A DNA stretch of 64,000 nt, taken from assembly GCA_005400705.1 (NCBI GenBank), contig GCA_005400705.1_4079.1. One strand, given 5' to 3'. Shown here in pieces: positions 47,993-61,750 of this stretch. The position numbers and the translations under genes are program-made. The DNA comes from Escherichia coli (GTDB lineage Bacteria > Pseudomonadota > Gammaproteobacteria > Enterobacterales > Enterobacteriaceae). A model generated the notes under the pieces. It had not been told where the DNA came from. It saw only the letters and a program-made list of their open reading frames with translations, and searched no databases. Positions within the stretch are counted from its first letter, which is position 1. Each line of letters begins with the position of its first letter.

Positions 47993-48020
47993 TTGACATT
48001 ACCGCAGAAAAGCGTAGAAT
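47993..48020 (+). promoter_or_regulatory. sigma70-type promoter TTGACA-16-TAGAAT
   Basis: ttgaca 47993-47998, tagaat 48015-48020. Confidence 0.5.
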
Positions 48021-48143
48021 GTATTACATCAAGACGGGGAGCACTAAGTAGACCGCCAGTAAGTCGAACGAAAAACTGGACACGTCGAGAAAACTTTGAT
48101 ACACTAATAAACGTAAACTAAACTTTAATTGAGGATTTATAAA

Positions 48144-48626: not shown

Positions 48627-48647
48627 CAATTAAAGTACTGAATCACT

Positions 48648-48675
48648 AGCCCACCTTAAACGGTGGGCTTTTTTG
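48648..48675 (+). terminator. intrinsic terminator
   Basis: agcccacc-ttaaac-ggtgggct then T6. Confidence 0.7.
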
Positions 48676-48823
48676 TGTTTATCGTTTACCAGGCCACCAG
48701 CACCGCCTAGAAACGATTCTAACGCATTAAACTGATTATCTGATGCATTGCCCTAGCTGGTGGCGTTAAGGCTGTAAGAACGCGATTGAGAGCGTTTAAA
48801 GTATTTTGCAAAAAGTAATAAAA

Positions 48824-48888
48824 AGTACTTGCACGATTAAGAGATTAGCGTATAATGTTTTACATCGAGAGGGGGAAACGGTTCTCCT
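48824..48888 (+). promoter_or_regulatory. PeSL-like cassette
   Basis: aaagtacttgcacgattaagagattagcgtataat, hairpin ggggaa-acgg-ttctcc. Confidence 0.55.
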
Positions 48889-48911
48889 TCCAAATCAAAG
48901 GAATTAAAACA

Positions 48912-49139
48912 ATGGCTATCGTAATCACTCGCGTAACTGGTACTACTGGCAATTCTTCTACTGTTGCTGTAATTACTAATAAGAAAGGTGCGGAATTGCA
49001 TTTTGCAATGGATAAATGGGCCGTTAATGAGTTCGGTCAGTGGGCAAGTGTAGCATACATTGAAACCTATCAAGTGCCGTCGATTAGTTTAACTGATTTG
49101 GGCGTTGAGCGTATCCTTTGCCTGGATGAATTAAATTAA
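48912..49139 (+). CDS. hypothetical protein
   Basis: 75 aa from ATG 48912, RBS aaggaa. Confidence 0.55.
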   Translation: MAIVITRVTGTTGNSSTVAVITNKKGAELHFAMDKWAVNEFGQWASVAYIETYQVPSISLTDLGVERILCLDELN

Positions 49140-49140
49140 A

Positions 49141-49206
49141 AAAGTACTTGCAAAGTAAATCAGATAAAGTATAATACATTACATCAAGGGGAGAAATGGT
49201 TCTCCC
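49141..49206 (+). promoter_or_regulatory. PeSL-like cassette
   Basis: aaagtacttgcaaagtaaatcagataaagtataat, hairpin gggaga-aatggt-tctccc. Confidence 0.6.
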
Positions 49207-49225
49207 TGATAATGAGGAAACTAAT

Positions 49226-49369
49226 ATGAAAACTTGTCAATGTGGTAAAAAATCTATTACTGGTTTAAAGCGGGGCGTTGCACTTTGCCAGTACCATTAT
49301 AATTTACAAGTATGGGGTAAAGAATGGGCCGACCAGGTGGAAGCAGCAAAGAAAGCAAAAAGTAAGTAA
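49226..49369 (+). CDS. small Cys-containing protein
   Basis: 47 aa (below cutoff), RBS gagga; CQCG...C..H. Confidence 0.45.
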   Translation: MKTCQCGKKSITGLKRGVALCQYHYNLQVWGKEWADQVEAAKKAKSK

Positions 49370-49388
49370 AAATATTATCACAGTACTA

Positions 49389-49417
49389 TTGACATAGTTT
49401 GATAGTACTGGCATAAT
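49389..49417 (+). promoter_or_regulatory. promoter TTGACA-17-CATAAT (AGTACTGG class)
   Basis: ttgaca 49389-49394, gatagtactggcataat. Confidence 0.5.
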
Positions 49418-49450
49418 AGATTTTATCAAGACAACTAAGAGGAAATTAAA

Positions 49451-49795
49451 ATGGCTAATATCAACACTATCGCAAAACAAAATATCAACCTGTCTTCTGT
49501 TGAAGTTGTACATATTGCCGCTCGGCGTTGGTTCCAGGCTTCATATGGTAACACTTATTTCTCTTTAAGTGTAGACGTAGAAATTGATGGTAATTTTATT
49601 GAAGTAGTAAACGTGCCGTTCCAATATGGATACGGGGATCACTTTGACACTGTAGCAATGGAAGAATTTAGCAAGGTTATTAATATGGAAGATAAGGAGT
49701 TTACACGCGGATCGTACCTTTCACGTTTTTGCCGTGATAATAATATCACTGTTTACAGTTCGGTAACTGATGTTAAACGCAAAAAAGATCTTTAA
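49451..49795 (+). CDS. hypothetical protein (paralog of 55420 product)
   Basis: 114 aa; shared features incl. C-terminal DVKRKKD. Confidence 0.55.
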   Translation: MANINTIAKQNINLSSVEVVHIAARRWFQASYGNTYFSLSVDVEIDGNFIEVVNVPFQYGYGDHFDTVAMEEFSKVINMEDKEFTRGSYLSRFCRDNNITVYSSVTDVKRKKDL

Positions 49796-49875
49796 TTCGC
49801 TTTACTTTATGCAGATACTTTGATATAGTGTCTGCATAGGGGAAAGAAATTAAATTAACTTAAGAGGAACGTATA

Positions 49876-50145
49876 ATGAAAAATATCAGTACTTTAATCG
49901 ATGCAGGTACACATGTTCGGCGGTCAATGGTTGCAACCAGTACTACAAAACAAGTAGCGAGCGGTTATCTTGTATTTGTGCACGATGGTAAACTCCTGGA
50001 ACGTTCAATCAATTTTGATGTTAAAAACAATTGCCGTTTTATTATCTTTCGCCGTGAACAATATAAGATCGACATTCCAGCGAAGCCCATTAGCGGTGCG
50101 TACAACGTGCAATCATTGTTTGAGCGTCAACCATACACCTATTAA
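49876..50145 (+). CDS. hypothetical protein
   Basis: 89 aa, RBS agagga. Confidence 0.5.
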   Translation: MKNISTLIDAGTHVRRSMVATSTTKQVASGYLVFVHDGKLLERSINFDVKNNCRFIIFRREQYKIDIPAKPISGAYNVQSLFERQPYTY

Positions 50146-50196
50146 TCAAAACATCGTTAGCGGTTGATTTAGGCCGCTTATATTGAGGATTATACC

Positions 50197-50469
50197 ATGA
50201 ACGTTAATCAAGTACTGAATGAGATCGAAAGCATCATTAAACCGATGAAGCGTACTGATGCTATGTTAACACCGGAAGAATGCCGCCTATATGAGCGTTA
50301 TAGCGTCGAACAAGTCCAGGCAATGGCTATGGCTACCACAGCCGTTAAACCGCCTGAGAATGCGTTACAGGACGTTACAGGGGATTATATCATCAATCCA
50401 GTACTAGGGAAGATGGCTGCAATCACCGAAGATCAACAAGACTACTTAAGCCAGTACTTAAAAGGTTAA
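50197..50469 (+). CDS. hypothetical protein
   Basis: 90 aa, RBS gagga. Confidence 0.5.
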   Translation: MNVNQVLNEIESIIKPMKRTDAMLTPEECRLYERYSVEQVQAMAMATTAVKPPENALQDVTGDYIINPVLGKMAAITEDQQDYLSQYLKG

Positions 50470-50474
50470 TTAAT

Positions 50475-50684
50475 ATGCTTACTGTACAGGATAAGATCGA
50501 CATCTTAAAGGTTAATATGTATGTGATTGATGCCGTACCTGGTAAAGTATTTGCATACGATGATAGTACTGTAAGCGATTTCTACTATAGCCAGGACGTG
50601 GGGGATCTTTCTGTACAGTCGGTTATTGAAAACGTAGTTAATGCAGCGTATGAGCATTTACTTTCAAATAGTACTTGCAATTAG
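50475..50684 (+). CDS. hypothetical protein
   Basis: 69 aa. Confidence 0.45.
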   Translation: MLTVQDKIDILKVNMYVIDAVPGKVFAYDDSTVSDFYYSQDVGDLSVQSVIENVVNAAYEHLLSNSTCN

Positions 50685-50734
50685 TTTTTAAACGCGTATA
50701 ATGTTTTACATGAAGGGGAGAAATGATTCTCCCC
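50670..50734 (+). promoter_or_regulatory. PeSL-like cassette
   Basis: agtacttgcaattagtttttaaacgcgtataat, hairpin ggggagaa-atga-ttctcccc. Confidence 0.6.
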
Positions 50735-50753
50735 ACTAATTAAGGAATATGAA

Positions 50754-50900
50754 ATGAAAGCATCAAAAAAGAGTAATACCAAGAAAGCATGTTCACCTTT
50801 CGCTGGGGTATTCCCTTTACGTTTCGTTGATGAAGTGGTTTCCTACCCGCCGGGCCTTACTCCTGAGATGGTAGAAAGTTTGCGTAAATCTAAAAAATAG
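50754..50900 (+). CDS. small basic protein
   Basis: 48 aa (below cutoff), RBS aagga. Confidence 0.4.
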   Translation: MKASKKSNTKKACSPFAGVFPLRFVDEVVSYPPGLTPEMVESLRKSKK

Positions 50901-50963
50901 TACTTGCAATTAGTTTTCAGTACTGTATAATGTTTTACATGAAGGGGAGAAATGATTCTCCCC
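50899..50963 (+). promoter_or_regulatory. PeSL-like cassette
   Basis: agtacttgcaattagttttcagtactgtataat, hairpin ggggagaa-atga-ttctcccc. Confidence 0.6.
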
Positions 50964-50981
50964 AATAACAGGAGAAACAAA

Positions 50982-51134
50982 ATGAAACAATACAACGCTC
51001 GGTTTGATGTTACTATCGGTAACGGCAAAGGTCAATTCTCTTTCAGTACTCGCAAAAGTTATACAGAAAACTTCCTGCGTAATTGTGCACTGACCGCCGC
51101 TCAAATTAAACATTACTTTCAGGCTAAAAAATGA
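50982..51134 (+). CDS. small protein
   Basis: 50 aa from ATG 50982, RBS aggaga. Confidence 0.45.
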   Translation: MKQYNARFDVTIGNGKGQFSFSTRKSYTENFLRNCALTAAQIKHYFQAKK

Positions 51135-51220
51135 AATCATTAGCTTACTATAGTTCGGCCCTGGTCGGTACATTGATCGCGGCATTGTTAGTAACCTATC
51201 TATTCTTTATGGTGATTTAA
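51131..51220 (+). CDS. small hydrophobic peptide
   Basis: 29 aa, ATGA overlap, single TM helix. Confidence 0.25.
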   Translation: MKSLAYYSSALVGTLIAALLVTYLFFMVI

Positions 51221-51364
51221 ATGAATCCAACAGGTTTAAATTATAAAAGTTGTTCGGCGTTTACGAAAGCAAATAAAGCGAATGCACGTAAAGCGAAAGT
51301 ACAGGAATACATCAAGCAAGGCATGACGCGAAAGGCGGCGATTCTAAAAGCTAAAAATAAATGA
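51221..51364 (+). CDS. small basic protein
   Basis: 47 aa, start abuts upstream stop. Confidence 0.35.
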   Translation: MNPTGLNYKSCSAFTKANKANARKAKVQEYIKQGMTRKAAILKAKNK

Positions 51365-51371
51365 AAAAAGT

Positions 51372-51402
51372 GGTTGACTCCGGTCAGCCATTTTGCTATT
51401 AT
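51372..51402 (+). terminator. fused terminator-promoter (GGTTGAC-TCCG-GTCAGCC)
   Basis: Hairpin 51372-51389, TTTT, tattat 51397-51402. Confidence 0.6.
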
Positions 51403-51488
51403 ATATTCATTGAGAGATAGCTCACTAGCCCACAGGGTGCATAAGTGTATCTATTATATAAGTATTGAGTACTGAAAACTATTTTTAA

Positions 51489-51554
51489 AAAGTACTTGCA
51501 AACTATCTCAATTGGCGTATAATGTTTTACATCGCAAGGGGAAACGGTTTCCCC
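51489..51554 (+). promoter_or_regulatory. PeSL-like cassette
   Basis: aaagtacttgcaaactatctcaattggcgtataat, palindromic stem ggggaaac-g-gtttcccc. Confidence 0.6.
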
Positions 51555-51574
51555 TGGTAATAAGGAAACGAATC

Positions 51575-51916
51575 ATGACTATCTCAATTGCTCAATCTAA
51601 CTTTGAAAACGAAATCATCGCCCAGGCACTGCGTTTAAATGATGGTCGGGCCGAAATTAATTACGGTTTCAATTCAGGCGGTTGCGAAAAATATCAGTAC
51701 TTTGTAACGGCTGATGGCGGTGTCCTGGGGATCAATACAGTTATTGTAAACATTCAGAAAATTAATTTCAATGATCCAGAAGATAGCCAGTTTTACATCA
51801 CGGGCGTGAACGTGAACTATGAGGATGATTATCTAACTGATGATCACACTGGCGAGAAGTTAGAAAGTGCATACGGTGAAGATGATTATCAGTCCGGTCC
51901 AGAAGATTTTGAATAA
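51575..51916 (+). CDS. hypothetical acidic protein
   Basis: 113 aa from ATG 51575, RBS aagga. Confidence 0.55.
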   Translation: MTISIAQSNFENEIIAQALRLNDGRAEINYGFNSGGCEKYQYFVTADGGVLGINTVIVNIQKINFNDPEDSQFYITGVNVNYEDDYLTDDHTGEKLESAYGEDDYQSGPEDFE

Positions 51917-51930
51917 TATTAAAAAATAGT

Positions 51931-51990
51931 TTGACAATAGATTATAGTACTGTATAATAAGTTACATCAAGGGGAGAAATGATTCTCCCC
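51931..51990 (+). promoter_or_regulatory. PeSL-like cassette (TTGACA-16-TATAAT)
   Basis: ttgaca 51931-51936, tataat 51953-51958, hairpin ggggagaaatgattctcccc 51971-51990. Confidence 0.6.
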
Positions 51991-52010
51991 ACTAACAAAG
52001 AGAAAACAAA

Positions 52011-52223
52011 ATGGCTAATATCTGCACTGTACTGAAAAATGCAAAACAAGTTTTATTTTCTGATCATGAAAATTTCAACAAGGATATTACGGGCGTTCGG
52101 AATATCAAAGATGTAAAAAGTGTTATGGGTATCTATTGCAATATGAAACGTGTTGGTACGTTCGGCGACAAAGTACTATACCAGGCAGGGGATTATAACT
52201 TTACATTAACCATTATCAATTAA
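52011..52223 (+). CDS. hypothetical protein
   Basis: 70 aa. Confidence 0.55.
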   Translation: MANICTVLKNAKQVLFSDHENFNKDITGVRNIKDVKSVMGIYCNMKRVGTFGDKVLYQAGDYNFTLTIIN

Positions 52224-52241
52224 AATATATTACCAGTACTA

Positions 52242-52270
52242 TTAACAATGATTGATAGTACTGGCATAAT
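52242..52270 (+). promoter_or_regulatory. promoter TTAACA-17-CATAAT (AGTACTGG class)
   Basis: gatagtactggcataat. Confidence 0.45.
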
Positions 52271-52314
52271 AACTTTTATCAACAGTAGTTAACTTAACAA
52301 AAGAGAGAAACAAA

Positions 52315-52458
52315 ATGATCGCACTAGATTCATTCATCGACGCAGTACTGGCAAAAACTGGCGAGGATCTGACCGCAGAACAATACGCGATGATCGAACA
52401 ATGTCAGCAAAACGGTAAATCGGTGAAAGATACTGTTAAGATTATCCGCAAGATGTAA
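52315..52458 (+). CDS. small protein
   Basis: 47 aa (below cutoff), RBS agagag. Confidence 0.4.
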   Translation: MIALDSFIDAVLAKTGEDLTAEQYAMIEQCQQNGKSVKDTVKIIRKM

Positions 52459-52563
52459 GATTATAGCCCACTGGTTAACGCTGGTGGGCTATAATTCATT
52501 ACCCTATACAATGCCAGTACTCAACCGTTTATCTCGTTAGAATGCGTTACAGGACGTTTACCA

Positions 52564-52761
52564 ATGATTAGCATGAAATCAGTACAAAAACAAATAGAAA
52601 CATTATCAAAAATTAAACGTAAACAGTACTCGTTAGAATATACAATCAATGGTAACTATCATCTAATGAAAGAGAATAATTTTATCGTCATTGATGAATC
52701 ATTGCAAGTTATTAGTATAGTACTGAAAGCATTAATCAATGACAGAAAAAAATTAAAATAA
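52564..52761 (+). CDS. hypothetical protein
   Basis: 65 aa. Confidence 0.45.
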   Translation: MISMKSVQKQIETLSKIKRKQYSLEYTINGNYHLMKENNFIVIDESLQVISIVLKALINDRKKLK

Positions 52762-52765
52762 TCTA

Positions 52766-52794
52766 TTGACAATATCCTCCAGTACTGGCATAAT
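52766..52794 (+). promoter_or_regulatory. promoter TTGACA-17-CATAAT (AGTACTGG class)
   Basis: ttgaca 52766-52771, agtactggcataat. Confidence 0.5.
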
Positions 52795-52856
52795 ACTTAC
52801 ATCAAGACGAGAACGTCACCAACCCATAGGGTGCACAAATGTAACTATATAATATC

Positions 52857-52929
52857 GATCAATAAATGATCAAAAAAGTACTGGATCAATTTAGCATAAG
52901 GCGTATAATTCTGATCAATTCTTGATCAA
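52857..52929. repeat. cluster of five (T)GATCAA repeats (GATC sites)
   Basis: gatcaa at 52857, 52868, 52884, 52913, 52924, flanking a tataat at 52903-52908. Confidence 0.5.
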
Positions 52930-53090
52930 AGGCAATATACGCAGTTGAATTTATATAGACAGTACAAAGGCGTTACTATCCGTGGTAATGCTGGTGGATA
53001 TGTAGTATCATATGGTTTGAATAAGATAAACACTAGTAGTATTATTGTAGCATTACAGTACTATAGTATTTTTATAATGAGGTTAAAATA

Positions 53091-53348
53091 ATGGCAGTAG
53101 GATACGCGAAAGACGGGGCCGAACAAGACGAGATTCATGCAGTGATTCAGGCCGCCGTTAACCACGCTAGAAAGCAAATTAACGCACAAAGAGAATCACT
53201 GGTACATTGCCTCGACTGCGGCGATAAAATTCCTGAGAATCGACGCCAGGCCGTTATAGGGTGCATGTATTGTATTACTTGCCAGGAGGATCATGATAGT
53301 ACTTTTAAAAGAGATCCGCGTAATTGTTGGCATAGATCTATGAGATAA
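53091..53348 (+). CDS. TraR/DksA-family C4 zinc-finger protein
   Basis: 85 aa; CLDCGDKIPENRRQAVIGCMYCITCQ gives CxxC-x17-CxxC as in TraR/DksA. Confidence 0.65.
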   Translation: MAVGYAKDGAEQDEIHAVIQAAVNHARKQINAQRESLVHCLDCGDKIPENRRQAVIGCMYCITCQEDHDSTFKRDPRNCWHRSMR

Positions 53349-53354
53349 AAAGTA

Positions 53355-53383
53355 ATTGACAGTACTGAAAGATAGTGTATAAT
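53355..53383 (+). promoter_or_regulatory. sigma70-type promoter TTGACA-17-TATAAT
   Basis: ttgaca 53355-53360, tataat 53378-53383. Confidence 0.55.
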
Positions 53384-53412
53384 GTTTTATATCTTAACTG
53401 AGGATAGAAATC

Positions 53413-53769
53413 ATGGGAATACAACATATCACGCGTACTACTGACAATGGCGAGATCACTGGTTATCAAGTACAGGGCAAAGTAGCACAATTGCAGTACT
53501 GGTTTGTTAAACGTGGAATCATTGCACCGGATCTTGATTATGACCGTGTAGCGTTTATTGATTCTCTTTATGTTGATCCTGATAGTCGGGGCAATGGTGA
53601 AGGTAACGAATTAATGAATGCCTTTATCGATGCCGCCGATGATTCAGATTGTATCATCTTAGAATGCGATACGGGAGAAGATAACGCCTTTAATCTTAAA
53701 GAATGGTACGAAGGTTTCGGATTCGAGGTATTGATAGATAGTGAATATCCTATCATGATTTTATCATAG
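53413..53769 (+). CDS. hypothetical protein, possibly GNAT-like acetyltransferase
   Basis: 118 aa; IDSLYVDPDSRGNGEGNELMNAFIDAA loosely resembles GNAT motif A. Confidence 0.5.
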   Translation: MGIQHITRTTDNGEITGYQVQGKVAQLQYWFVKRGIIAPDLDYDRVAFIDSLYVDPDSRGNGEGNELMNAFIDAADDSDCIILECDTGEDNAFNLKEWYEGFGFEVLIDSEYPIMILS

Positions 53770-53830
53770 TACTTGCATTTAGTTTTCAGTACTGTTATAG
53801 TACTTGCATCAAGGGGAAACATCTTCCCCT
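53768..53830 (+). promoter_or_regulatory. PeSL-like cassette (degenerate -10)
   Basis: agtacttgcatttagttttcagtactgttatag, hairpin aggggaa-acatc-ttcccct. Confidence 0.45.
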
Positions 53831-53847
53831 ACTAAGAGGAAATAAAA

Positions 53848-54036
53848 ATGGAAAACTTATCAAGTATTTTAGTACAAGATGATTTCGGTAATCCTGGAAG
53901 TGCTATCATTGTTCGGGGTAATAAAGCAACGTTTGTTATTGCTGGTGGACCCGTACAGCGTAGCATTAAAAATAATGCTGTTACCATTAATAATGTACGC
54001 TATCGCTTAGATAAAGAATTGATTCATAAACTGTAA
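53848..54036 (+). CDS. hypothetical protein
   Basis: 62 aa, RBS agagga. Confidence 0.5.
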   Translation: MENLSSILVQDDFGNPGSAIIVRGNKATFVIAGGPVQRSIKNNAVTINNVRYRLDKELIHKL

Positions 54037-54044
54037 AAAAGTAC

Positions 54045-54104
54045 TGGACAATAGATTATAGTACTGTATAATAAGTTACATGAAGGGGAGAAATGATTCT
54101 CCCC
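54045..54104 (+). promoter_or_regulatory. PeSL-like cassette
   Basis: tggaca-16-tataat (54067-54072), hairpin ggggagaaatgattctcccc. Confidence 0.55.
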
Positions 54105-54122
54105 AGTACTGAGGAAAGAAAA

Positions 54123-54335
54123 ATGCAAGGTCAACTAATCGTTCGTAAATGGTCTGATACTAACGCTAAACCGTGGGATGTACAATACATCGGCCCCAAT
54201 GGTGAATCCAGATATCAACCAGGTGTAACGCATAGTACTGAGCAATTCGCCGCCGCTCATCGTGAACGTCTGTTACAATCAATGCAGCAAGGTTCCGGTG
54301 AAAAATTCATTCAGGATCATTGGCTGAAAGATTAA
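54123..54335 (+). CDS. hypothetical protein
   Basis: 70 aa from ATG 54123, RBS gagga. Confidence 0.55.
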   Translation: MQGQLIVRKWSDTNAKPWDVQYIGPNGESRYQPGVTHSTEQFAAAHRERLLQSMQQGSGEKFIQDHWLKD

Positions 54336-54336
54336 A

Positions 54337-54400
54337 AAGTACTTGCACAGTACTGAATAAAGTGTATAATGTTTTATATCGAGAGGGGAATAGTTCCCCT
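54337..54400 (+). promoter_or_regulatory. PeSL-like cassette
   Basis: aaagtacttgcacagtactgaataaagtgtataat, hairpin gaggggaa-tag-ttcccctc. Confidence 0.6.
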
Positions 54401-54421
54401 CCTAACAAAAAGGAAAGTATA

Positions 54422-54595
54422 ATGATCCAAGTAGAATTATCAGTACTGAAAGATCTATTTTATCGGTTAGGTACTAATGGCGAGTATCCTAAAAGTGATA
54501 CCGCAAAACTTTTTGTATCACTCGACTTATGGCAACGCGAACAATTAGTAATGTCGTGGCGTAAAGGTAAAGCAGATCGCGAGGTGAAAGCATGA
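54422..54595 (+). CDS. small protein
   Basis: 57 aa from ATG 54422, RBS aaggaaag. Confidence 0.45.
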   Translation: MIQVELSVLKDLFYRLGTNGEYPKSDTAKLFVSLDLWQREQLVMSWRKGKADREVKA

Positions 54596-54741
54596 AAGAA
54601 TTCTTATTTGAAGTAGTGTTTCAAGGTGTCGGTAATAACCAACTGATTCGATCAAGTGGTTATAATGTTAACCAGGCATGGAATAACATTAAACAAATGT
54701 ACCCTAACGCTATCACCTATCGCAACCCGAAAGAAGTTTAA
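54592..54741 (+). CDS. small protein
   Basis: 49 aa, ATGA overlap. Confidence 0.35.
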   Translation: MKEFLFEVVFQGVGNNQLIRSSGYNVNQAWNNIKQMYPNAITYRNPKEV

Positions 54742-54755
54742 AAATAATTGAAAAA

Positions 54756-54789
54756 GGGATTGACTCCGGTCAGTCCCTTTGCTATTATA
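54756..54789 (+). terminator. fused terminator-promoter (GGGATTGAC-TCCG-GTCAGTCCC)
   Basis: Hairpin 54756-54777, TTT, tattat 54784-54789. Confidence 0.6.
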
Positions 54790-54873
54790 TACGCATAGAA
54801 ACAAATCAGCCCACCGGGTGCATAAATGTATCTATTGTTTGCTGGTGGCTAGTACTGAAAACTATTTTTAAAA

Positions 54874-54906
54874 AGTACTTGCATTGTACTTAGAATCAAG
54901 TATAAT
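54874..54906 (+). promoter_or_regulatory. PeSL-type promoter driving the structured element
   Basis: aaagtacttgcattgtacttagaatcaagtataat. Confidence 0.55.
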
Positions 54907-54990
54907 GTTTTACATCAGGACGGGGAACGAAATAAGTAACTTCCCGTTAAGTAGCCCAGGAGTAAGGCACACGAAAAACTCCCCTGATAA
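54907..54990 (+). ncRNA. candidate structured small RNA, copy B
   Basis: Sequence identical to 45066-45150. Confidence 0.35.
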
Positions 54991-54996
54991 AATAGT

Positions 54997-55024
54997 TTGA
55001 CAATAGAAAGTAAACGAGTATAAT
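54997..55024 (+). promoter_or_regulatory. sigma70-type promoter TTGACA-16-TATAAT
   Basis: ttgaca 54997-55002, tataat 55019-55024. Confidence 0.55.
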
Positions 55025-55057
55025 ACTTACATCAACCACTGATAAGGAAACATTAAA

Positions 55058-55333
55058 ATGCGGATTCTACTGACAGCTAACGAAATCGAACAAGTACTGA
55101 CTACTAACCTGGAACAATGGAAACGTGATGCAGATATCCAGGCGGTTCAATGGCTTAACGATAAGTTAACGCCGGATGACTTAAGCAAGATTGTAGATCC
55201 TCAATTCTACGAAGATATCCACGACACCGCGTTAAGCGTCGAGGATGTACTTGATAAGCACTACATTGATACTGATTTACAGGTTTACGGTCGTAAAAAC
55301 TTTATCACTATCCACGACATTTACAATAATTAA
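55058..55333 (+). CDS. hypothetical acidic protein
   Basis: 91 aa, RBS aaggaaa. Confidence 0.55.
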   Translation: MRILLTANEIEQVLTTNLEQWKRDADIQAVQWLNDKLTPDDLSKIVDPQFYEDIHDTALSVEDVLDKHYIDTDLQVYGRKNFITIHDIYNN

Positions 55334-55336
55334 GTA

Positions 55337-55398
55337 TTGACAAAGTATCTTAGTACTGTATAATAGTTTACATCAAGTGAGGGGAAACGGTTCCCCTC
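55337..55398 (+). promoter_or_regulatory. PeSL-like cassette
   Basis: ttgaca-16-tataat (55359-55364), hairpin gaggggaaacggttcccctc. Confidence 0.6.
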
Positions 55399-55419
55399 CT
55401 AACAAAGAGAGAAATAAAA

Positions 55420-55743
55420 ATGGCTATGATCCTTACCCAGAAAGTAGAACTGAAAATTGTAACCTCCTTTGACATTAAAGTTAATCGCTGGACTGATCGG
55501 AACGGCAATACTTACCACTCTTGCTACGTGTCTGCATTGATTGGTGATCGTTGGGAAGACCTGGGACACGAAACTTTTACATACGGTTACGGTACGCAAG
55601 GCGAATACACGGGCTTGGAGATCATTAAAGAAACCGTTATAGGTTTCAACCCGAAAGAAAAAGTTATTCACCGCATCGAAAAAGAGATTAACAAAGAAAT
55701 AACAGTTCGCTACTACGATGTAAAACGTAAGAAAGACATGTAA
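55420..55743 (+). CDS. hypothetical protein (paralog of 49451 product)
   Basis: 107 aa, RBS agagag. Confidence 0.55.
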   Translation: MAMILTQKVELKIVTSFDIKVNRWTDRNGNTYHSCYVSALIGDRWEDLGHETFTYGYGTQGEYTGLEIIKETVIGFNPKEKVIHRIEKEINKEITVRYYDVKRKKDM

Positions 55744-55758
55744 TAGAATCCATTTAAA

Positions 55759-55794
55759 GTACTATTTGACATTACACAGATAGTACTTTATAAT
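55759..55794 (+). promoter_or_regulatory. promoter with palindrome AGTACTAT...ATAGTACT
   Basis: ttgaca 55766-55771 inside the palindrome, tataat 55789-55794. Confidence 0.5.
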
Positions 55795-55838
55795 AGACTC
55801 TAGCTTGTAGTACTAACTTAACTAATAGGATGTATACC

Positions 55839-56234
55839 ATGATTACTAAATTCTACGCTACCCGTGAAGCTGCCCGTATTGTTGCACGCGAGGAAGGAGC
55901 AGCATTTAAAGACATGGGCAAAGATGCACCGAAAGGCCAACGCTGGGCCGTACAGTTCAAAGAGATCTCTGATATTGTGAATTCACCGGAGCCAGTACTG
56001 ACAGCAGCAGAACAGAAGAAAGCTGATGAACTGTCAGCAGTTCTTAACGCTCAAGATGACTTTATCGCGGGTTCTGATATTAAAGTTTCCGTAAATTCGA
56101 ATGCATGGACTCACGCGGATCATCTGGCTAACTTGAAGCGTCCAAGTGTACTGATTCGCAACCAACGAGAGATCCGCCACGACCGCAAGGGAAACAGTGT
56201 TACTGTATTCAGTAAACGCCGCCAGGTTATCTAA
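55839..56234 (+). CDS. hypothetical protein (paralog of 44207 product)
   Basis: 131 aa from ATG 55839, RBS agga. Confidence 0.55.
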   Translation: MITKFYATREAARIVAREEGAAFKDMGKDAPKGQRWAVQFKEISDIVNSPEPVLTAAEQKKADELSAVLNAQDDFIAGSDIKVSVNSNAWTHADHLANLKRPSVLIRNQREIRHDRKGNSVTVFSKRRQVI

Positions 56235-56255
56235 TAACTTGCAGTACTAACAACA

Positions 56256-56290
56256 CGGCGGGTTCAGTTCCCGCCTTTTTTTTATAGGAT
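56256..56290 (+). terminator. intrinsic terminator
   Basis: ggcggg-ttcagtt-cccgcc then T9. Confidence 0.7.
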
Positions 56291-56298
56291 AAACTAAA

Positions 56299-56553
56299 AT
56301 GATGAAGGTACAACTATCTAAAGATAATATCTTGCGGGTACACTATAAAGCACCACAGAGAATCATCACAAAGGCCGTACAGCTTGCTAATGAGTTTATT
56401 AATGGTAGTCTATTACCCAGGAAGTTAAGCAACGGGAAACTACGTGTTATCGATGTAGACACTAACAATAGAATAGTAATTGAGAGTACTGGAAAAATTA
56501 ATCTATATGAACACCAACAATACAATAAAAAAATAAAACTAATATCACGTTGA
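56299..56553 (+). CDS. hypothetical protein
   Basis: 84 aa. Confidence 0.5.
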   Translation: MMKVQLSKDNILRVHYKAPQRIITKAVQLANEFINGSLLPRKLSNGKLRVIDVDTNNRIVIESTGKINLYEHQQYNKKIKLISR

Positions 56554-56578
56554 CAGTACTCAATTGTTTTAGTATTAT
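56550..56578 (+). promoter_or_regulatory. promoter TTGACA-17-TATTAT
   Basis: Near-identical to the 56826 promoter and leader. Confidence 0.5.
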
Positions 56579-56606
56579 GTACACATACCAACACGGGAGA
56601 AACAAA

Positions 56607-56825
56607 ATGAAATTATCTAAAATCGAAAAGAAAACTATTGATGAAGCAGTTAAGCACGGTTATACCTTTCGTAATGATTCACATTTTACCAATTTTCAAC
56701 AAGGGTATCGTACTATTAAAAAACTAATTGACAAAGGTTTATTAGTTGAAGTCAATAACGGCAATGGCATTGAGTATCAACCAACACAGGACGCATTTTA
56801 TTTTAAGAAATATAATATTATCTAA
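56607..56825 (+). CDS. hypothetical protein
   Basis: 72 aa from ATG 56607, RBS gggaga. Confidence 0.5.
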   Translation: MKLSKIEKKTIDEAVKHGYTFRNDSHFTNFQQGYRTIKKLIDKGLLVEVNNGNGIEYQPTQDAFYFKKYNII

Positions 56826-56854
56826 TTGACAGTACTCAAATGTTTTAGTACTAT
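56826..56854 (+). promoter_or_regulatory. promoter TTGACA-17-TACTAT
   Basis: Duplicate of the 56550 cassette. Confidence 0.5.
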
Positions 56855-56883
56855 ATGTACATACCAACACGGGGAAAAACAAA

Positions 56884-57126
56884 ATGATTACTTTAGAAAA
56901 ACGTATCAAAGAAACTACATCGCTGGTGGAACTGTTAACAGTACTGAAATGTAAAACAACACCATTCAGCACGCCGGACTTTATTAATATGGTTGATGTT
57001 AATGGTCGCTATCGCATCACGGTCGAACAAGGAGCGGCGAAAGTATTCAGTACTAAAAACACCAAGGAAGTGATCCACGCCGTTAATGTTAAAAAAGTAG
57101 TTGCCATTGATAGTAAAGTACTGTAA
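56884..57126 (+). CDS. hypothetical protein
   Basis: 80 aa. Confidence 0.5.
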   Translation: MITLEKRIKETTSLVELLTVLKCKTTPFSTPDFINMVDVNGRYRITVEQGAAKVFSTKNTKEVIHAVNVKKVVAIDSKVL

Positions 57127-57157
57127 TATAGTTTCATTAACTCAAGGAGAACATGCA

Positions 57158-57742
57158 ATGCGTAATTATACTAAATTCATCCGTACACTGTCAGAAATGG
57201 AAACCAACAAAGAGATCCTTTCAGCTTGTCGGTTAGCTGGCCTGGAGATCATCGGTGCTGGTTCTTCCCGTATAGTATTCGCTTTAAATGATCGGTTAGT
57301 GATTAAGGTCGCGAATTGTGATGCGGGTGTAGAACAAAATGAAACTGAATGTAAGGTATGGAATTTTTTAGACTATGACCGCCCTCAGTTGAAACAGTAC
57401 TTTGCAAAGGTGCATATGCATTTATGCGATCCTGATAATATGTTTATCGTTATGGATCGGTTGAGTACTGCAAGCAAAGGCAGTGTGAAGCACGTTAACG
57501 CGTGCAATGAATTAAAGTACAATATTAAACGTAATGCCATTGAACGCCAGCACCGCTTTGCTGATGCACTACAACACGTTGATGATACCTTATCAACACT
57601 AACTATAAGAGATATCAGAAAACAGAATATCGGCCAGGATCGCAACGGCTTGATTAAAGTACTTGATTACGGTTTAACCCGCAATATCTGGAATCAGTAC
57701 TATAAAAAGCGTGATGTAAAAGCCGTAACTATAACACGATAA
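57158..57742 (+). CDS. protein kinase-like protein
   Basis: 194 aa from ATG 57158 (RBS aaggaga); Gly-rich IGAGSSRIVF, Lys in VIKVA, RDIRKQNIG (HRD-like), VLDYGL (DFG-like). Confidence 0.5.
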   Translation: MRNYTKFIRTLSEMETNKEILSACRLAGLEIIGAGSSRIVFALNDRLVIKVANCDAGVEQNETECKVWNFLDYDRPQLKQYFAKVHMHLCDPDNMFIVMDRLSTASKGSVKHVNACNELKYNIKRNAIERQHRFADALQHVDDTLSTLTIRDIRKQNIGQDRNGLIKVLDYGLTRNIWNQYYKKRDVKAVTITR

Positions 57743-57756
57743 AAAAGATTAAAAAA

Positions 57757-57790
57757 GGGATTGACTCCGGTCAGTCCCTTTGCTATTATA
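57757..57790 (+). terminator. fused terminator-promoter (GGGATTGAC-TCCG-GTCAGTCCC)
   Basis: Hairpin 57757-57778, TTT, tattat 57785-57790. Confidence 0.6.
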
Positions 57791-57871
57791 TATGCATGAA
57801 AACAATCTAACCCACCGGGTGCATAAATGTATCTATTATATAAGTATTCAGTACTGAAAACTATTTTTAAA

Positions 57872-57937
57872 AAGTACTTGCATACTATCTCAATTCGCGT
57901 ATAATGTTTTATATCGAGAGGGGGAAATGGTTCTCCC
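57872..57937 (+). promoter_or_regulatory. PeSL-like cassette
   Basis: aaagtacttgcatactatctcaattcgcgtataat, hairpin ggggaa-atgg-ttctcc. Confidence 0.6.
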
Positions 57938-57959
57938 TGGTACATTAAGGAATAAAATC

Positions 57960-58367
57960 ATGACTACTACCAATCAAGCTCGGAACATCACCAACGATAA
58001 AAATCATGCTGCAATGGTCGCTGGATACATTGAAGCTATGCAATTCAGTACTGTATACAATGAGAACGGCGATTACCTGGAAGATTATGAATTATCAGAG
58101 CAAGCCCATCAAGCGGCAGTGATTGCATGTTCACGTTTCCTTGCTGTACATGGTGAAGATATGGAAACAGTACAAAAACACCATAATCCTGATTATACTT
58201 ATAATCATGCAGGTCATGATCTCTTTCTTACTCGCGAAGGTCACGGCACTGGCTTTTGGGATCGTGATATCGGTCACTATGACGATGTATTCACTAAGTA
58301 CTGCGAAGAAATCAACGTTTGCGATCCCTATGTAGGCGATGATAATCTAATCTATATGGGCGAATAA
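57960..58367 (+). CDS. hypothetical His-rich protein
   Basis: 135 aa from ATG 57960, RBS aaggaa. Confidence 0.55.
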   Translation: MTTTNQARNITNDKNHAAMVAGYIEAMQFSTVYNENGDYLEDYELSEQAHQAAVIACSRFLAVHGEDMETVQKHHNPDYTYNHAGHDLFLTREGHGTGFWDRDIGHYDDVFTKYCEEINVCDPYVGDDNLIYMGE

Positions 58368-58373
58368 AAGTAT

Positions 58374-58432
58374 TTGACAAAGTATATCAGTACTGTATAA
58401 TAGTTTACATCAAGGGGAGAATAGTTCTCCCC
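58374..58432 (+). promoter_or_regulatory. PeSL-like cassette
   Basis: ttgaca-16-tataat (58396-58401), hairpin ggggagaa-tag-ttctcccc. Confidence 0.6.
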
Positions 58433-58456
58433 ACACCAATAAAAGGAAACAAAATT

Positions 58457-58729
58457 ATGTCCAGCTACTCCGCTACTATGATCATTAAAGATATGAACGG
58501 TAATCCTACTTCTGCTGGTGGATCATTTGGAAATATTAACTTAGATGGGCGGTTATCCATGCAATCAGCCATTGATGCAGCGAAAGAAGTTTTTAAGAAT
58601 GAATGTACTGTAAGTAAGCTGGATTATATGGGATTCGCTATCGAGAAAACTAATCGTTTTGTGAACTACAAAAATCCACTGATGATCGATACTAACCTGA
58701 AAGCAAACGAAGTGGAATACTTATTATGA
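58457..58729 (+). CDS. hypothetical protein
   Basis: 90 aa, RBS aaaggaaa. Confidence 0.55.
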   Translation: MSSYSATMIIKDMNGNPTSAGGSFGNINLDGRLSMQSAIDAAKEVFKNECTVSKLDYMGFAIEKTNRFVNYKNPLMIDTNLKANEVEYLL

Positions 58730-58917
58730 CAGTTGAAGAAGTTAAAAAAGTACTGGCAGTACTACGCTATCATAATCATTGTAAGGTGAAGAATGATCCT
58801 GATTATGTTGATTCATCCCTGGAGGAAGACACCTTAAACGCGATAAGCCATATGCAAACATTAGCAAAGCGTATGACCGAAAAGAATAGGCCGGACTATA
58901 TCGGAAATAAAATTTAA
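58726..58917 (+). CDS. hypothetical protein
   Basis: 63 aa, ATGA overlap. Confidence 0.45.
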   Translation: MTVEEVKKVLAVLRYHNHCKVKNDPDYVDSSLEEDTLNAISHMQTLAKRMTEKNRPDYIGNKI

Positions 58918-58986
58918 AAAGTACTTGCATTGTAGTTAGATTAACGTATAATGTTTTATATCGAGAGGGGGAAATGGTTTCCCCTC
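58918..58986 (+). promoter_or_regulatory. PeSL-like cassette
   Basis: aaagtacttgcattgtagttagattaacgtataat, hairpin gagggggaaa-tgg-tttcccctc. Confidence 0.6.
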
Positions 58987-59004
58987 AAGTCCAGGAGATA
59001 CACC

Positions 59005-59268
59005 ATGAACGCTATTGAAATCACTATCAATGCACACGTATACGACAACGTAGTACTGCAAACTACTATGACCGCTAACGATACCAGTACTTTGCGGAAT
59101 ACTGTTATTAGTGCTGTATGTGCCGCTATCGGTGATGTCGCCCTGGAAAATGCAAAACACGTAAACGATGGTTTCACTATGTGCAAACGTGATAACGCAA
59201 AACATATCATCGTAGAAGGTTACGGCGGTGTAGAATATAATGTTTATATGAAAAAAGTACTTGCATAG
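59005..59268 (+). CDS. hypothetical protein
   Basis: 87 aa from ATG 59005, RBS aggaga. Confidence 0.55.
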   Translation: MNAIEITINAHVYDNVVLQTTMTANDTSTLRNTVISAVCAAIGDVALENAKHVNDGFTMCKRDNAKHIIVEGYGGVEYNVYMKKVLA

Positions 59269-59318
59269 TACTGAATAAAGCGTATAATGTTTTGCATAGG
59301 GGGAGATATCCTCCCCCA
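59265..59318 (+). promoter_or_regulatory. PeSL-like cassette
   Basis: aaagtacttgcatagtactgaataaagcgtataat, hairpin gggggag-atatc-ctccccc. Confidence 0.6.
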
Positions 59319-59335
59319 CTAAAAGGAGTATTAAA

Positions 59336-59560
59336 ATGGCTAACTTTGATGAACTGATGCGGGAAGTAGCTAACCTGGCAGAAGAGAAGAAATCATTCGA
59401 TTCTATCTATAACACCGCTCACCGTGATTCAGTACTGGCATGTAACCAGGATCAAAAAGATGAACTAATCGCCACATATCATGAAGCATGGAAGTACTAC
59501 CGACAATGGGAGAAAGAAGAAAGCGAGTCTACCATCGAAGGTATCAATAATCTAATCTAA
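59336..59560 (+). CDS. hypothetical protein
   Basis: 74 aa, RBS aaggag. Confidence 0.55.
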   Translation: MANFDELMREVANLAEEKKSFDSIYNTAHRDSVLACNQDQKDELIATYHEAWKYYRQWEKEESESTIEGINNLI

Positions 59561-59579
59561 AAGTTTTATTTCAGTACTA

Positions 59580-59608
59580 TTGACATAGCTTGATAGTACT
59601 GATATGAT
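59580..59608 (+). promoter_or_regulatory. promoter TTGACA-17-TATGAT (AGTACTG class)
   Basis: ttgaca 59580-59585. Confidence 0.45.
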
Positions 59609-59635
59609 AACTTTACTAACTAAAGGGGAAACATA

Positions 59636-59893
59636 ATGGAACAGTTCACACAATATCGGGTAAATCCAATTGCTACAGCCTACGTAGAAGACCATAAAAC
59701 GTTACCAGTACTGCAACCAGTTAAAGGCCGTATCTATCGTGGCCTTGCCTGGGATACGGCCCAGGATGGATATAAAACCGTCGCCGTGGGGATGTATTGC
59801 GGGAATGGTGAATGGTTTGATCCTAACAATCCGATTGCACTTGACAGTACTGAAAAAATGAAATGGTCCGACTACATCGAAGATATTTCATAA
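59636..59893 (+). CDS. hypothetical protein
   Basis: 85 aa, RBS aagggga. Confidence 0.55.
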   Translation: MEQFTQYRVNPIATAYVEDHKTLPVLQPVKGRIYRGLAWDTAQDGYKTVAVGMYCGNGEWFDPNNPIALDSTEKMKWSDYIEDIS

Positions 59894-59900
59894 AAACTAT

Positions 59901-59961
59901 TTGACAGTACTAACCAGTAATGTATAATGTTTTACATAGAGCGGGGGAATAGTTCTCCCGC
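59901..59961 (+). promoter_or_regulatory. PeSL-like cassette
   Basis: ttgaca-16-tataat (59923-59928), hairpin gcgggggaa-tag-ttctcccgc. Confidence 0.6.
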
Positions 59962-59983
59962 CAATAGTTTGGAGTAAAACATT

Positions 59984-60184
59984 ATGTCTATCGCTATCGC
60001 CCTGGTTGAAGTACTGAAAGAAGCTAAAGCCAACCTTATCGATGTACAGATTAAGGAATTGCAAAACGGCTTAATCGGCTGTACTTGTACCGCTGGTGGA
60101 GCGGCAGACTATCGAGAACACGAATCACTCGAATCACTGGTTCGGTATCTTACCATGATCGTTGATGATTGGAGAATCATCTAA
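59984..60184 (+). CDS. hypothetical protein
   Basis: 66 aa, RBS ggag. Confidence 0.5.
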   Translation: MSIAIALVEVLKEAKANLIDVQIKELQNGLIGCTCTAGGAADYREHESLESLVRYLTMIVDDWRII

Positions 60185-60201
60185 CAAAAAAGAATAAAAA
60201 A

Positions 60202-60234
60202 GGGATTGACTCAGGTCAGTCCCTTTGCTATTAT
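60202..60234 (+). terminator. fused terminator-promoter (GGGATTGAC-TCAG-GTCAGTCCC)
   Basis: Hairpin 60202-60223, TTT, tattat 60229-60234. Confidence 0.6.
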
Positions 60235-60347
60235 ATACGCATAGACAAAAACTAGCCCACAGGGTGCATAAGTGTATCCAAAATATATAGTTAATAACGG
60301 TGAGTAACTATCTGCTGGTGGAGTGAAAACTATTAATAAAAAAAGTA

Positions 60348-60376
60348 TTGACAAAGTATATCAGTACTGCGATAAT
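60348..60376 (+). promoter_or_regulatory. promoter TTGACA-17-GATAAT
   Basis: ttgaca 60348-60353, AGTACTG in spacer. Confidence 0.5.
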
Positions 60377-60429
60377 GTATCTCGTAGGGCGGCAATGGTG
60401 CGACGGCCCACAAAGTTAGGAGATTCAAA

Positions 60430-60762
60430 ATGACTACTTCAATCGCTATCGTTAAAGCTTTCATCCGTACTAATGTTTCCTCTGTATTCATCGACGGCCT
60501 CGACCGTAACGTAGAATACTCAATCATTATCGCACAAACGGCAAACGGTTCTCGGTACATCCTGAATGATAGTGAAGCAAATCACTACTACTTCACTAAA
60601 GCCACTGGCTTTAAACGCATCGATGCTGATGTAGTATACGCTAAGATGAATAAGCTGGTAGACAAGATTAACGCGAAAGGTACTATCGATTTACAGTACT
60701 GGACCGAAACCGATCCAGAATATGGATCACACCGCTACCTGAATCCAGGTATCAAAATGTAA
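60430..60762 (+). CDS. hypothetical protein
   Basis: 110 aa, RBS aggaga. Confidence 0.55.
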   Translation: MTTSIAIVKAFIRTNVSSVFIDGLDRNVEYSIIIAQTANGSRYILNDSEANHYYFTKATGFKRIDADVVYAKMNKLVDKINAKGTIDLQYWTETDPEYGSHRYLNPGIKM

Positions 60763-60763
60763 A

Positions 60764-60830
60764 AAGTACTTGCATAGTACTTAGATTCATGTATAATGTT
60801 TTACATAGAGAGGGGGAAATGGTTCTCCCT
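60764..60830 (+). promoter_or_regulatory. PeSL-like cassette
   Basis: aaagtacttgcatagtacttagattcatgtataat, hairpin gagaggggg-aaatgg-ttctccctc. Confidence 0.6.
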
Positions 60831-60851
60831 CCTAAATTAAGGAGTTTTATC

Positions 60852-61253
60852 ATGACCTTCTCAATCACTTCCTTCGCTGACGTTTTAGTACTGGCTCGGA
60901 CTTTTGGTAAAGATGCACTGGAGTACGCTGTAAGTAATGGCACTATCCAACCGGAACAGTGCCGCATCATTGGAAACTGCAAACGTTGGGCGGTATCCAA
61001 TACTATTGCACTGGAAAACTTCAACGATGGCAACAATGAATATTCTGTTGATGCAGTATTCGAAGCCGTAGACCTGGGCGGTATCTATAACACTAACCTG
61101 AATGATGTGCGTATCGTTCGCACTGGCTTCGGTGCTTATGATGTATCTATCCGTGAAGCTATGGACAAGGGATACATTAGCAAGGACCAGTTAGCTTACA
61201 TCATGCAGCAAACTAAGGAGCGTAACGAAGCCCGTACTATCTTAGGGTTGTAA
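60852..61253 (+). CDS. hypothetical protein
   Basis: 133 aa from ATG 60852, RBS aaggag. Confidence 0.55.
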   Translation: MTFSITSFADVLVLARTFGKDALEYAVSNGTIQPEQCRIIGNCKRWAVSNTIALENFNDGNNEYSVDAVFEAVDLGGIYNTNLNDVRIVRTGFGAYDVSIREAMDKGYISKDQLAYIMQQTKERNEARTILGL

Positions 61254-61321
61254 GCGTTACACATCACCAAACATCATAGGCCGCCTTGTAGCGGCCTTAA
61301 CTATATCAGGAGTACATACAC

Positions 61322-61531
61322 ATGATCTATACAGTATATAGCGTTCTAGGTACTATTGCAGGCGTACACGATAACGTCGATAGTGCTATGCGTACAGTAC
61401 TGCAACAGGTTCCACTAAAGCCTAAGACCATTAAGCAGATGACAGCACGACTAACCAGGGCGACGGCTGGCGTGGAAGTATGGCAGGACTATGGGGATAC
61501 ACAGATAATCGTAAGCGTAACGAAGGATTAA
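61322..61531 (+). CDS. hypothetical protein
   Basis: 69 aa, RBS aggag. Confidence 0.5.
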   Translation: MIYTVYSVLGTIAGVHDNVDSAMRTVLQQVPLKPKTIKQMTARLTRATAGVEVWQDYGDTQIIVSVTKD

Positions 61532-61564
61532 TGCGTAAAAGGATTTAGTACTGATTCAGAAAAA

Positions 61565-61640
61565 AGTCAAGGCGTTTTTAAAATTATGCGTTAAAAAAAT
61601 GCATAGGTAATCCCTTGACTTTTTTGAAATAAAAGGGATT
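61565..61640. promoter_or_regulatory. long inverted repeat at block boundary
   Basis: aaaaaagtcaagg ... ccttgactttttt flanking an internal palindrome atgcgttaaaaaaatgcat. Confidence 0.4.
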
Positions 61641-61750
61641 GGACTATGGCAAAATGCGTAGGGGGGCTAAAGTGCGGGTAACTTAGCGACTTCGATAAAA
61701 GGGTATTACGAATAAAATGTTATTGACTTTTTATATAAATCGTATAAAAT

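Follow-up and report, generated by a model that had tools for sequence, protein, structure and literature searches.

A repeated promoter-leader cassette and the variable presence of the gene between its copies in an Asteriusvirus jumbo coliphage

Two similar intergenic segments, at 56550-56606 and 56826-56883 on the plus strand of the window (the whole 64-kb stretch of DNA that was analysed), flank a small gene, ORF-C, that is missing together with one segment from a third of the related phage records carrying this cassette. We consider it likely that the segments are duplicate copies of an early promoter for the host RNA polymerase with its leader, and that recombination between the copies excises ORF-C. 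The window showed 88–95% nucleotide identity to 121Q, fEgEco12, TH47 and other phages and belongs to Asteriusvirus, the genus of the 121Q/PBECO4-like jumbo coliphages of ~350 kb. An earlier note on this DNA had placed two near-identical promoters and leaders at these positions, in front of unrelated proteins, and had read the arrangement as consistent with cassette-mediated gene swapping; its coordinates proved exact, and its other claims are taken up below with the evidence that bears on them.

Anatomy of the repeat pair

Copy 1 (56550-56606, plus strand) begins with a -35 element, TTGACA (56550-56555), followed by a 17-nt spacer, a -10 element, TATTAT (56573-56578), and a leader with the Shine-Dalgarno sequence GGGAG (56595-56599) 7 nt before the ATG at 56607, and it ends one base before that ATG. 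Copy 2 (56826-56883, plus strand) has the same layout, with TTGACA at 56826-56831, a 17-nt spacer, TACTAT at 56849-56854 and GGGGA at 56871-56875, 8 nt before the ATG at 56884, again ending one base before the start codon. The motif of both copies is TTGACA-N17-TAYTAT with a short leader and a ribosome-binding site, and in a scan for the sigma-70-type consensus copy 1 scored 11 of 12 matches and copy 2 scored 10 of 12, both with 17-nt spacers. Each copy is accordingly predicted to be a sigma-70-type promoter with its leader; that these promoters are used, and used early, is what their consensus matches would suggest.

Global alignment of the two copies gave 51 identical columns out of 58 (88%) with one gap, so that the copies are indeed alike, the description of them as near-identical being slightly generous. 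They differ by T/A at position 15, by T/C at position 26, by GTACAC versus ATGTAC 3' of the -10 element, and by GGGAG versus GGGGA in the Shine-Dalgarno sequence. When the flanks were included in the alignment, the likeness was bounded by the -35 element at its 5' end and by the ATG at its 3' end; the repeat period was 276 nt. Even when up to three mismatches were tolerated, the 25-nt core TTGACAGTACTCAANTGTTTTAGTA had just two occurrences in the 64-kb window, and it was found in none of 100 dinucleotide-preserving shuffles (0 expected). By identity the pair ranked 9th of 820 promoter-cassette pairs from the same 20-kb region, where the median pair was 61% identical, and therefore stands well above the level of a generic promoter consensus, although other pairs of the region are more similar still.

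The TGA stop codon of the upstream ORF-B (56551-56553) lies inside the -35 element of copy 1, in the sequence AAAATAAAACTAATATCACG, and ORF-C ends in a TAA (56823-56825) directly adjoining the -35 element of copy 2, in the sequence AGAAATATAATATTATCTAA; with both stop codons thus belonging to the element, the cassette constitutes the whole intergenic space. A Shine-Dalgarno sequence and an ATG at the correct spacing were kept in all 25 cassette copies taken from 15 sequences, and the cassette was 89–100% conserved across 36 phage records. No significant stem-loop was found in either copy when folds were compared with those of shuffled sequences (-2.8 kcal/mol and z = +1.16 for copy 1; -4.8 kcal/mol and z = -0.52 for copy 2), merely a weak AGTACT-N10-AGTACT pairing being possible in copy 2. 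A scan for terminator-like sites returned none from 56286 to 57753.

Genes and elements of the locus

The locus is preceded, after ORF-A, by an element at 56238-56285 (plus strand) that appears to be a degraded half-cassette and terminator, with a -35-like sequence (TTGCAGTACT), no -10 element, and a hairpin, GGCGGG-N7-CCCGCC, followed by eight T. It contains a terminator-like call at 56257-56275, within the terminator at 56257-56285, and has a DNA fold of -8.4 kcal/mol (z = -2.3). In this it is like the PeSLs (promoter-early stem-loops) termed 'degraded' by Comeau 2014, which retain a -35 element and stem-loop and are missing the -10 element (PMC4122927).

ORF-B (56299-56553, plus strand; 84 aa) encodes a ParE-like toxin domain (Pfam PF24732, E = 3e-10; phrog_1525). 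No antitoxin gene was identified adjoining it, the next gene being the winged-helix ORF-C. The two were considered as a toxin-antitoxin pair and this candidate was rejected: 12 phages keep ORF-B without ORF-C, which makes an obligate pairing unlikely.

ORF-C (56607-56825, plus strand; 72 aa), between the two repeats, is a predicted winged-helix DNA-binding protein, its AlphaFold2 model (pLDDT 90) giving Foldseek matches to AspA, MarR and MecI with TM values of 0.78–0.84. Relatives with 37–57% identity were present in Vequintavirinae and in Xylella, Bordetella and Burkholderia phages. ORF-D (56884-57126, plus strand; 80 aa) is an ORFan, predicted by AlphaFold2 (pLDDT 77) to consist of two short helices and five strands and thus mostly of beta strands; its fold had no match in the PDB, and only 5 close homologues were found. 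Neither ORF-C nor ORF-D was assigned to a Pfam or PHROG family, and the profiles of both searched against PDB sequences gave nothing below E = 0.05.

ORF-E (57158-57742, plus strand; 194 aa) is weakly protein-kinase-like (Pkinase E = 0.002, below the Pfam cutoff; phrog_4301, E = 8e-42), its homologues are annotated as Ser/Thr kinases in several relatives, and it is probably the last gene of a transcription unit fed by both cassettes. This unit would be closed by a composite hairpin/promoter at 57754-57789 (plus strand), with a 12-bp stem, AAAGGGATTGAC-TCCG-GTCAGTCCCTTT, that contains TTGACT and is followed by the -10 element TATTAT. Terminator-like and promoter-like calls coincide at this element, which is part of repeat families D10/D14 and is a PeSL in the strict sense.

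Presence and absence of ORF-C among related phages

The full 921-nt region was present in 24 of the 36 cassette-carrying phage records; in the other 12 it was found in two pieces totalling ~641 nt, so that one cassette and ORF-C (~276–280 nt, one repeat unit) were absent. In PBECO4, for instance, the order is ORF-B, one cassette, ORF-D. ORF-C is a dispensable, mobile module between the repeats.

For junction typing, cassettes were extracted from 14 relatives and from the window, and the single cassettes of the one-cassette phages fell into three types. In PBECO4, SP27, E9.1, SD-1 (SD-1_S14) and ELP-22 the cassette is of copy-2 type throughout, with TATATGTACATACC after the -10 element; in EC.P1 a copy-1 promoter with all three copy-1 markers (CAATTG, GTATTAT and GTACAC) is fused to ORF-D; and in TH47 a copy-1-type segment after the -10 element, TATGTATATATACC, is fused to ORF-D. 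The copy-2-type single-cassette state could be ancestral instead of a deletion product. The chimeras of EC.P1 and TH47 are products of deletion or conversion, with exchange between copy 1 and copy 2 on the 3' side of the -10 element, whatever the ancestral state. In Turkey3 and CMSTMSU the first 29 nt of copy 1 match those of copy 2 without a difference, a pattern that fits conversion of one by the other.

Local neighbour-joining trees, built from ~900 nt of recombining sequence and carrying no support values, interleaved the one- and two-cassette phages, and the most divergent relatives, A4 and 121Q, carry both cassettes, which suggests repeated losses of ORF-C with a cassette among these relatives. 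The absence of the unit from 12 relatives, the EC.P1 and TH47 chimeras and a relocation in EJP2 (described below) speak for the gene swapping that the earlier note had proposed, with the qualification that replacement in place was not seen here: among the related phages compared, no other gene stood between the copies where ORF-C stands in the window.

The cassette subtype was confined to one locus per genome in the 36 phage records. Searches for the core in IMG/VR and metagenome contigs returned only 121Q and two contigs, with two copies 276 nt apart, and there was no match in GTDB bacterial genomes; occurrence at a single locus identifies it as a local two-copy direct repeat, not a dispersed mobile cassette. 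In A4 (locus L008, positions 1186-1478) the leader of cassette 2 is 7 nt longer (CACGGAATAACTGGAGAAACAAAATG), and the ORF-D homologue of this phage is just 60% identical, with a different and shorter C-terminus.

Proposed mechanism and the case for convergence

If both copies act as promoters, transcription would start ~7 nt 3' of each -10 element and give a leader of ~20–25 nt, and, as there is no terminator between the copies, transcripts from both should run through ORF-D and the kinase-like ORF-E as far as the hairpin at 57754-57781. An exchange between the 58-nt direct repeats, 276 nt apart, whether by homologous recombination or by template switching, would excise ORF-C and one cassette and leave a single, at times chimeric, cassette before ORF-D. 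A 276-nt circle carrying ORF-C and a cassette would be its reciprocal product, for which re-entry at another cassette may be possible. A recombinase A and an exonuclease are encoded by the Asteriusvirus Sharanji (PMC11895373), and recombination in T4 needs <50 bp of homology, as cited by Arbiol et al. 2010 (PMC2839356).

The similarity of the copies might instead reflect functional convergence only, the flanked genes having the same regulatory needs (a promoter class, perhaps an operator), with illegitimate insertions and deletions supplying the differences between phages and selection retaining those with intergenic breakpoints. The strong conservation of the cassette over the 36 phage records fits such constraint, as does a 10-bp palindrome, TATGTACATA, at the -10/start region of copy 2, and with intergenic DNA in this region nearly all cassette, the location of breakpoints is compatible with mechanism and selection alike. 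However, the copies remain alike across the 17-nt spacer and along the leader, on which promoter function places little constraint, and typical regional pairs reach only the 61% already mentioned; the segment missing in the 12 phages is one repeat period, with its junctions in register inside the repeat; and two clean chimeras are the signature of homology-dependent exchange. The palindrome, moreover, is not enriched in the window (12 occurrences versus 8.5 expected) and is kept in phages that are without ORF-C, the sole nearby DNA-binding candidate; an operator bound by ORF-C was rejected on these two grounds. We therefore regard convergence alone as an unlikely explanation.

The surrounding array and its breakpoints

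Base 1 of fEgEco12, its physical left end, aligned to position 41690 of the window, and the direct terminal repeat of that phage is 20,993 bp long and experimentally supported (PMC13070987), which places the terminal repeat at ~41690-61680 of the window. The repeat, ~21 kb in length, contains about 30–40 promoter cassettes before unrelated small ORFs. A repeat search recovered families of 25, 14, 9, 8 and 16 copies within ~42–61 kb, with a promoter-like copy at 6082 as the sole cassette copy outside the terminal repeat. Most array cassettes have a G-rich/C-rich stem-loop 3' of the -10 element (57867-57965, for example), and some, such as 57754-57789, are hairpins with the -35 element inside the stem. 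The 6-kb neighbourhood of the pair was matched by 78 Asteriusvirus records; relatives cover just 64–89% of it, in 2–9 pieces. The earlier statement that several PeSL cassettes likewise precede unrelated ORFs was confirmed, given families of 14–25 copies at 42–61 kb and 30 cassette-associated ORFs that are mutually unrelated.

Among individual cassette pairs that precede unrelated ORFs, 45010-45201 and 54851-55042 share 192 nt at 90%, 51425-51554 and 57807-57936 share 130 nt at 89%, and the pair at 51931 and 54045 shares 58 nt at 97%; each of these exceeds the pair studied here in length or in similarity. Hairpins of the form AAAGGGNTTGACT-NNGG-TCAGNCCCTTT, with a -35-like TTGAC in the stem and then a -10-like TATTAT or TATAAT, occur at 57754-57789 and also at 12167, 15409, 15592, 16935, 18020, 22946, 51364, 54750 and 60195; they are composite terminator/promoters, strict-sense PeSLs, and are thus found outside the terminal repeat too. 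About 750 nt inside from 41690, at 42435-42594, there is an array with an 8-nt period (GGATGGCT / AGACGGCT / AAACGGCT), which is possibly linked to the genome terminus. On the minus strand at 27558-37400, nine tandem units of ~1.2 kb share a common gene start (the reverse complement of AAAGGAGGGAAATATGTTACCTTTTGTTAGAATGTTTGATTATGGGAAT), and these look like an array of paralogous genes.

In EJP2 the homologue of ORF-C (79% nucleotide and 70% amino acid identity) occupies a different slot, between two stem-loop cassettes, where it adjoins homologues of window positions 58726-58917 and 59336-59560. Homology between EJP2 and the window extends from 6 nt before the ORF-C ATG to 13 nt before the stop codon, limits which show that the relocated module is gene-sized and cassette-bounded; other modules have been reordered or lost in EJP2 as well. 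For several extra ORFs of fEgEco12, both flanking blocks aligned to one and the same cassette of the window. Counted against fEgEco12, 121Q, PBECO4 and EJP2, 34 of the 42 unique block breakpoints fell within a cassette ±15 nt, a space amounting to 26% of the region (binomial, 2e-13). Because intergenic DNA is nearly all cassette, selection for intact ORFs alone would give a similar bias in breakpoint location, and we therefore take the in-register unit deletions and the chimeras as the stronger evidence.

The hexamer AGTACT, extended as C-AGTACT-G, was found 299 times in the 64-kb window against 21 ± 4.5 expected, a ~14-fold excess. It is the top hexamer by composition, occupies each of the three codon frames within long ORFs (54/21/29), and is densest at 41690-61700, reaching 6.9 per kb in the terminal-repeat part. 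Most promoter cassettes have it built in, in the forms AAAAAGTACTTGCA, CAGTACTGTATAAT and TTGACAGTACT, the last of which is that of the pair studied here; a literature search on the excess found nothing relevant. It is conceivable that the terminal repeat is a dedicated integron-like array of 30–40 promoter and ORF modules, turned over by a process that targets (C)AGTACT(G) and goes beyond general recombination, an idea to which we give little credence.

Lack of relationship between the downstream proteins

That the proteins behind the two cassettes are unrelated, as the earlier note had claimed from the sequence, was supported at four levels, and the homology between them that it had named as the finding that would speak against it did not emerge at any of these. 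BLASTP of ORF-C against ORF-D gave no alignment at E ≤ 100; hhalign comparison of profiles made from the homologues of each gave a probability of 0.1%; the AlphaFold2 folds are predicted to differ, a winged helix for ORF-C versus two helices and five strands for ORF-D; and the distributions differ, ORF-C being present in several phage groups and ORF-D being confined to sequences closely matching this locus. By similarity search, profile, predicted fold and distribution, the two proteins thus appear to be unrelated. In an all-against-all comparison, the 30 cassette-associated ORFs showed no significant similarity, and the few hits at E 0.01–0.1 among them arose from ATGs inside the shared hairpin.

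These comparisons bear directly on whether the pair arose by tandem duplication of a promoter together with its gene, the coding parts having since diverged so that ORF-C and ORF-D would be ancient paralogues. As such a duplication would have it, the two units lie next to each other in one orientation, their proteins are of comparable length (72 and 80 aa), and the same cassette stands at the start of both. ORF-C and ORF-D are nevertheless without sequence or profile similarity, and their predicted architectures, a winged helix against a mostly beta fold, also differ. Homologues of ORF-C (37–57%) occur, moreover, in other phage groups, including two Vequintavirinae loci where the flanks are different and there is no ORF-D-like neighbour, and in EJP2 the gene lies elsewhere, behind a different cassette. 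An origin of the two genes by duplication is, in our judgement, highly improbable.

That the repeat is itself coding, supplying a common 19-residue N-terminal extension (MTVLNCFS...) from the TTG of TTGACA, we discount almost entirely, for although a 91-aa TTG-start ORF at 56550-56825 is in the open-reading-frame list and the genes are so annotated in fEgEco12 (g042/g043) and PBECO4 (AGC34922.1), the 58-nt length of copy 2 puts its TTG out of frame with ORF-D, in a frame that stops after 42 codons, the -35-to-ATG distance of 57, 58, 60 or 65 nt among phages means that the frame is not conserved, and every copy has its Shine-Dalgarno sequence and ATG at the correct spacing. The annotations that start at the -35 TTG (fEgEco12, locus L021, 15554-15829 and 15830-16129; PBECO4, locus L001, 1809-2108) give a spurious shared N-terminus, MTVLNCFS or MTVLKCFS..., to the unrelated ORF-C and ORF-D proteins.

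Comparison with known systems

The pre-early block of phage T5 is a set of small genes of host-takeover type with strong host-type promoters in a long direct terminal repeat. The present array is similar in having early-type genes behind host-type promoters, as predicted, in a long direct terminal repeat; to our knowledge, stepwise entry of the DNA is not known for Asteriusvirus.

The paper on phage CBB goes no further than to list RpoD-like promoters, which cluster ahead of short hypothetical genes and within the terminal repeat (PMC5259590), and our search of the literature on Asteriusvirus and other Rak2-like phages found no description of such promoter cassettes, nor an Asteriusvirus transcriptome.

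In lambdoid phages, a moron is a gene that has entered between two neighbours and brings its own promoter and terminator (PMC2839356). ORF-C is like a moron in being small and dispensable, in having its own putative promoter, in lying between genes that are adjacent elsewhere, and in belonging to a family also present in unrelated phages. It differs in that no terminator of its own intervenes between its stop codon (ending at 56825) and cassette 2 (beginning at 56826), and in that its gain or loss is in register with flanking repeats, whereas moron accretion is thought to be independent of conserved flanks.

The closest parallel is with the PeSLs, defined in the T4-like phages RB49/phi1, PST/T4 and nt-1/KVP40 as cassettes in which an AT-rich upstream part holding a stop codon precedes a sigma-70-like promoter and a stem-loop that serves as terminator/attenuator, the 3' end being formed by a Shine-Dalgarno sequence and start codon (PMC2839356; PMC4122927). 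PeSLs lie in hyperplastic regions, where they take part in the deletion, insertion and replacement of ORFans; their crossovers have been mapped between the -10 element and the ATG, and mini-circles have been demonstrated (PMC2839356; PMC4122927), Arbiol et al. 2010 having described for them the same deletion topology that is seen here, with mini-circles (PMC2839356). Some differences are clear. The pair has no significant stem-loop, a feature which the neighbouring cassettes do have, and, lacking the terminator/attenuator role by which PeSLs are defined, it does not count as one in the strict sense; the host genome is that of an Asteriusvirus jumbo phage, not a strict T4-like phage, with the array in the ~21-kb direct terminal repeat; and the cassette subtype of the pair is found at a single locus, with the mini-circles known from T4-like PeSLs having their counterpart here in a circle predicted from sequence.

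Since promoter-cassette shuffling is already established, the present result fills in a known picture and adds no new principle, carrying PeSL-type modular shuffling beyond the T4-like phages into the 121Q/PBECO4 jumbo coliphages and placing it in a long terminal repeat that would be a block of early, probably host-takeover, genes. The gene content of this block will differ between otherwise near-identical therapeutic phage isolates. For the recombination role a stem-loop appears to be unnecessary, 58 nt of promoter-leader homology apparently sufficing for repeated in-register loss. Notwithstanding the differences from strict PeSLs, the AT-rich tail of an upstream gene with its stop codon adjoins the -35 and -10 elements here too, the 3' end of the pair's cassettes carries a Shine-Dalgarno sequence and leads into the ATG of a small ORFan, the setting is a hyperplastic, putatively early region beside ORFans, and insertions and deletions comprise one ORF and one cassette and leave a single chimeric cassette; as a recombination substrate, the pair would thus work like a PeSL.
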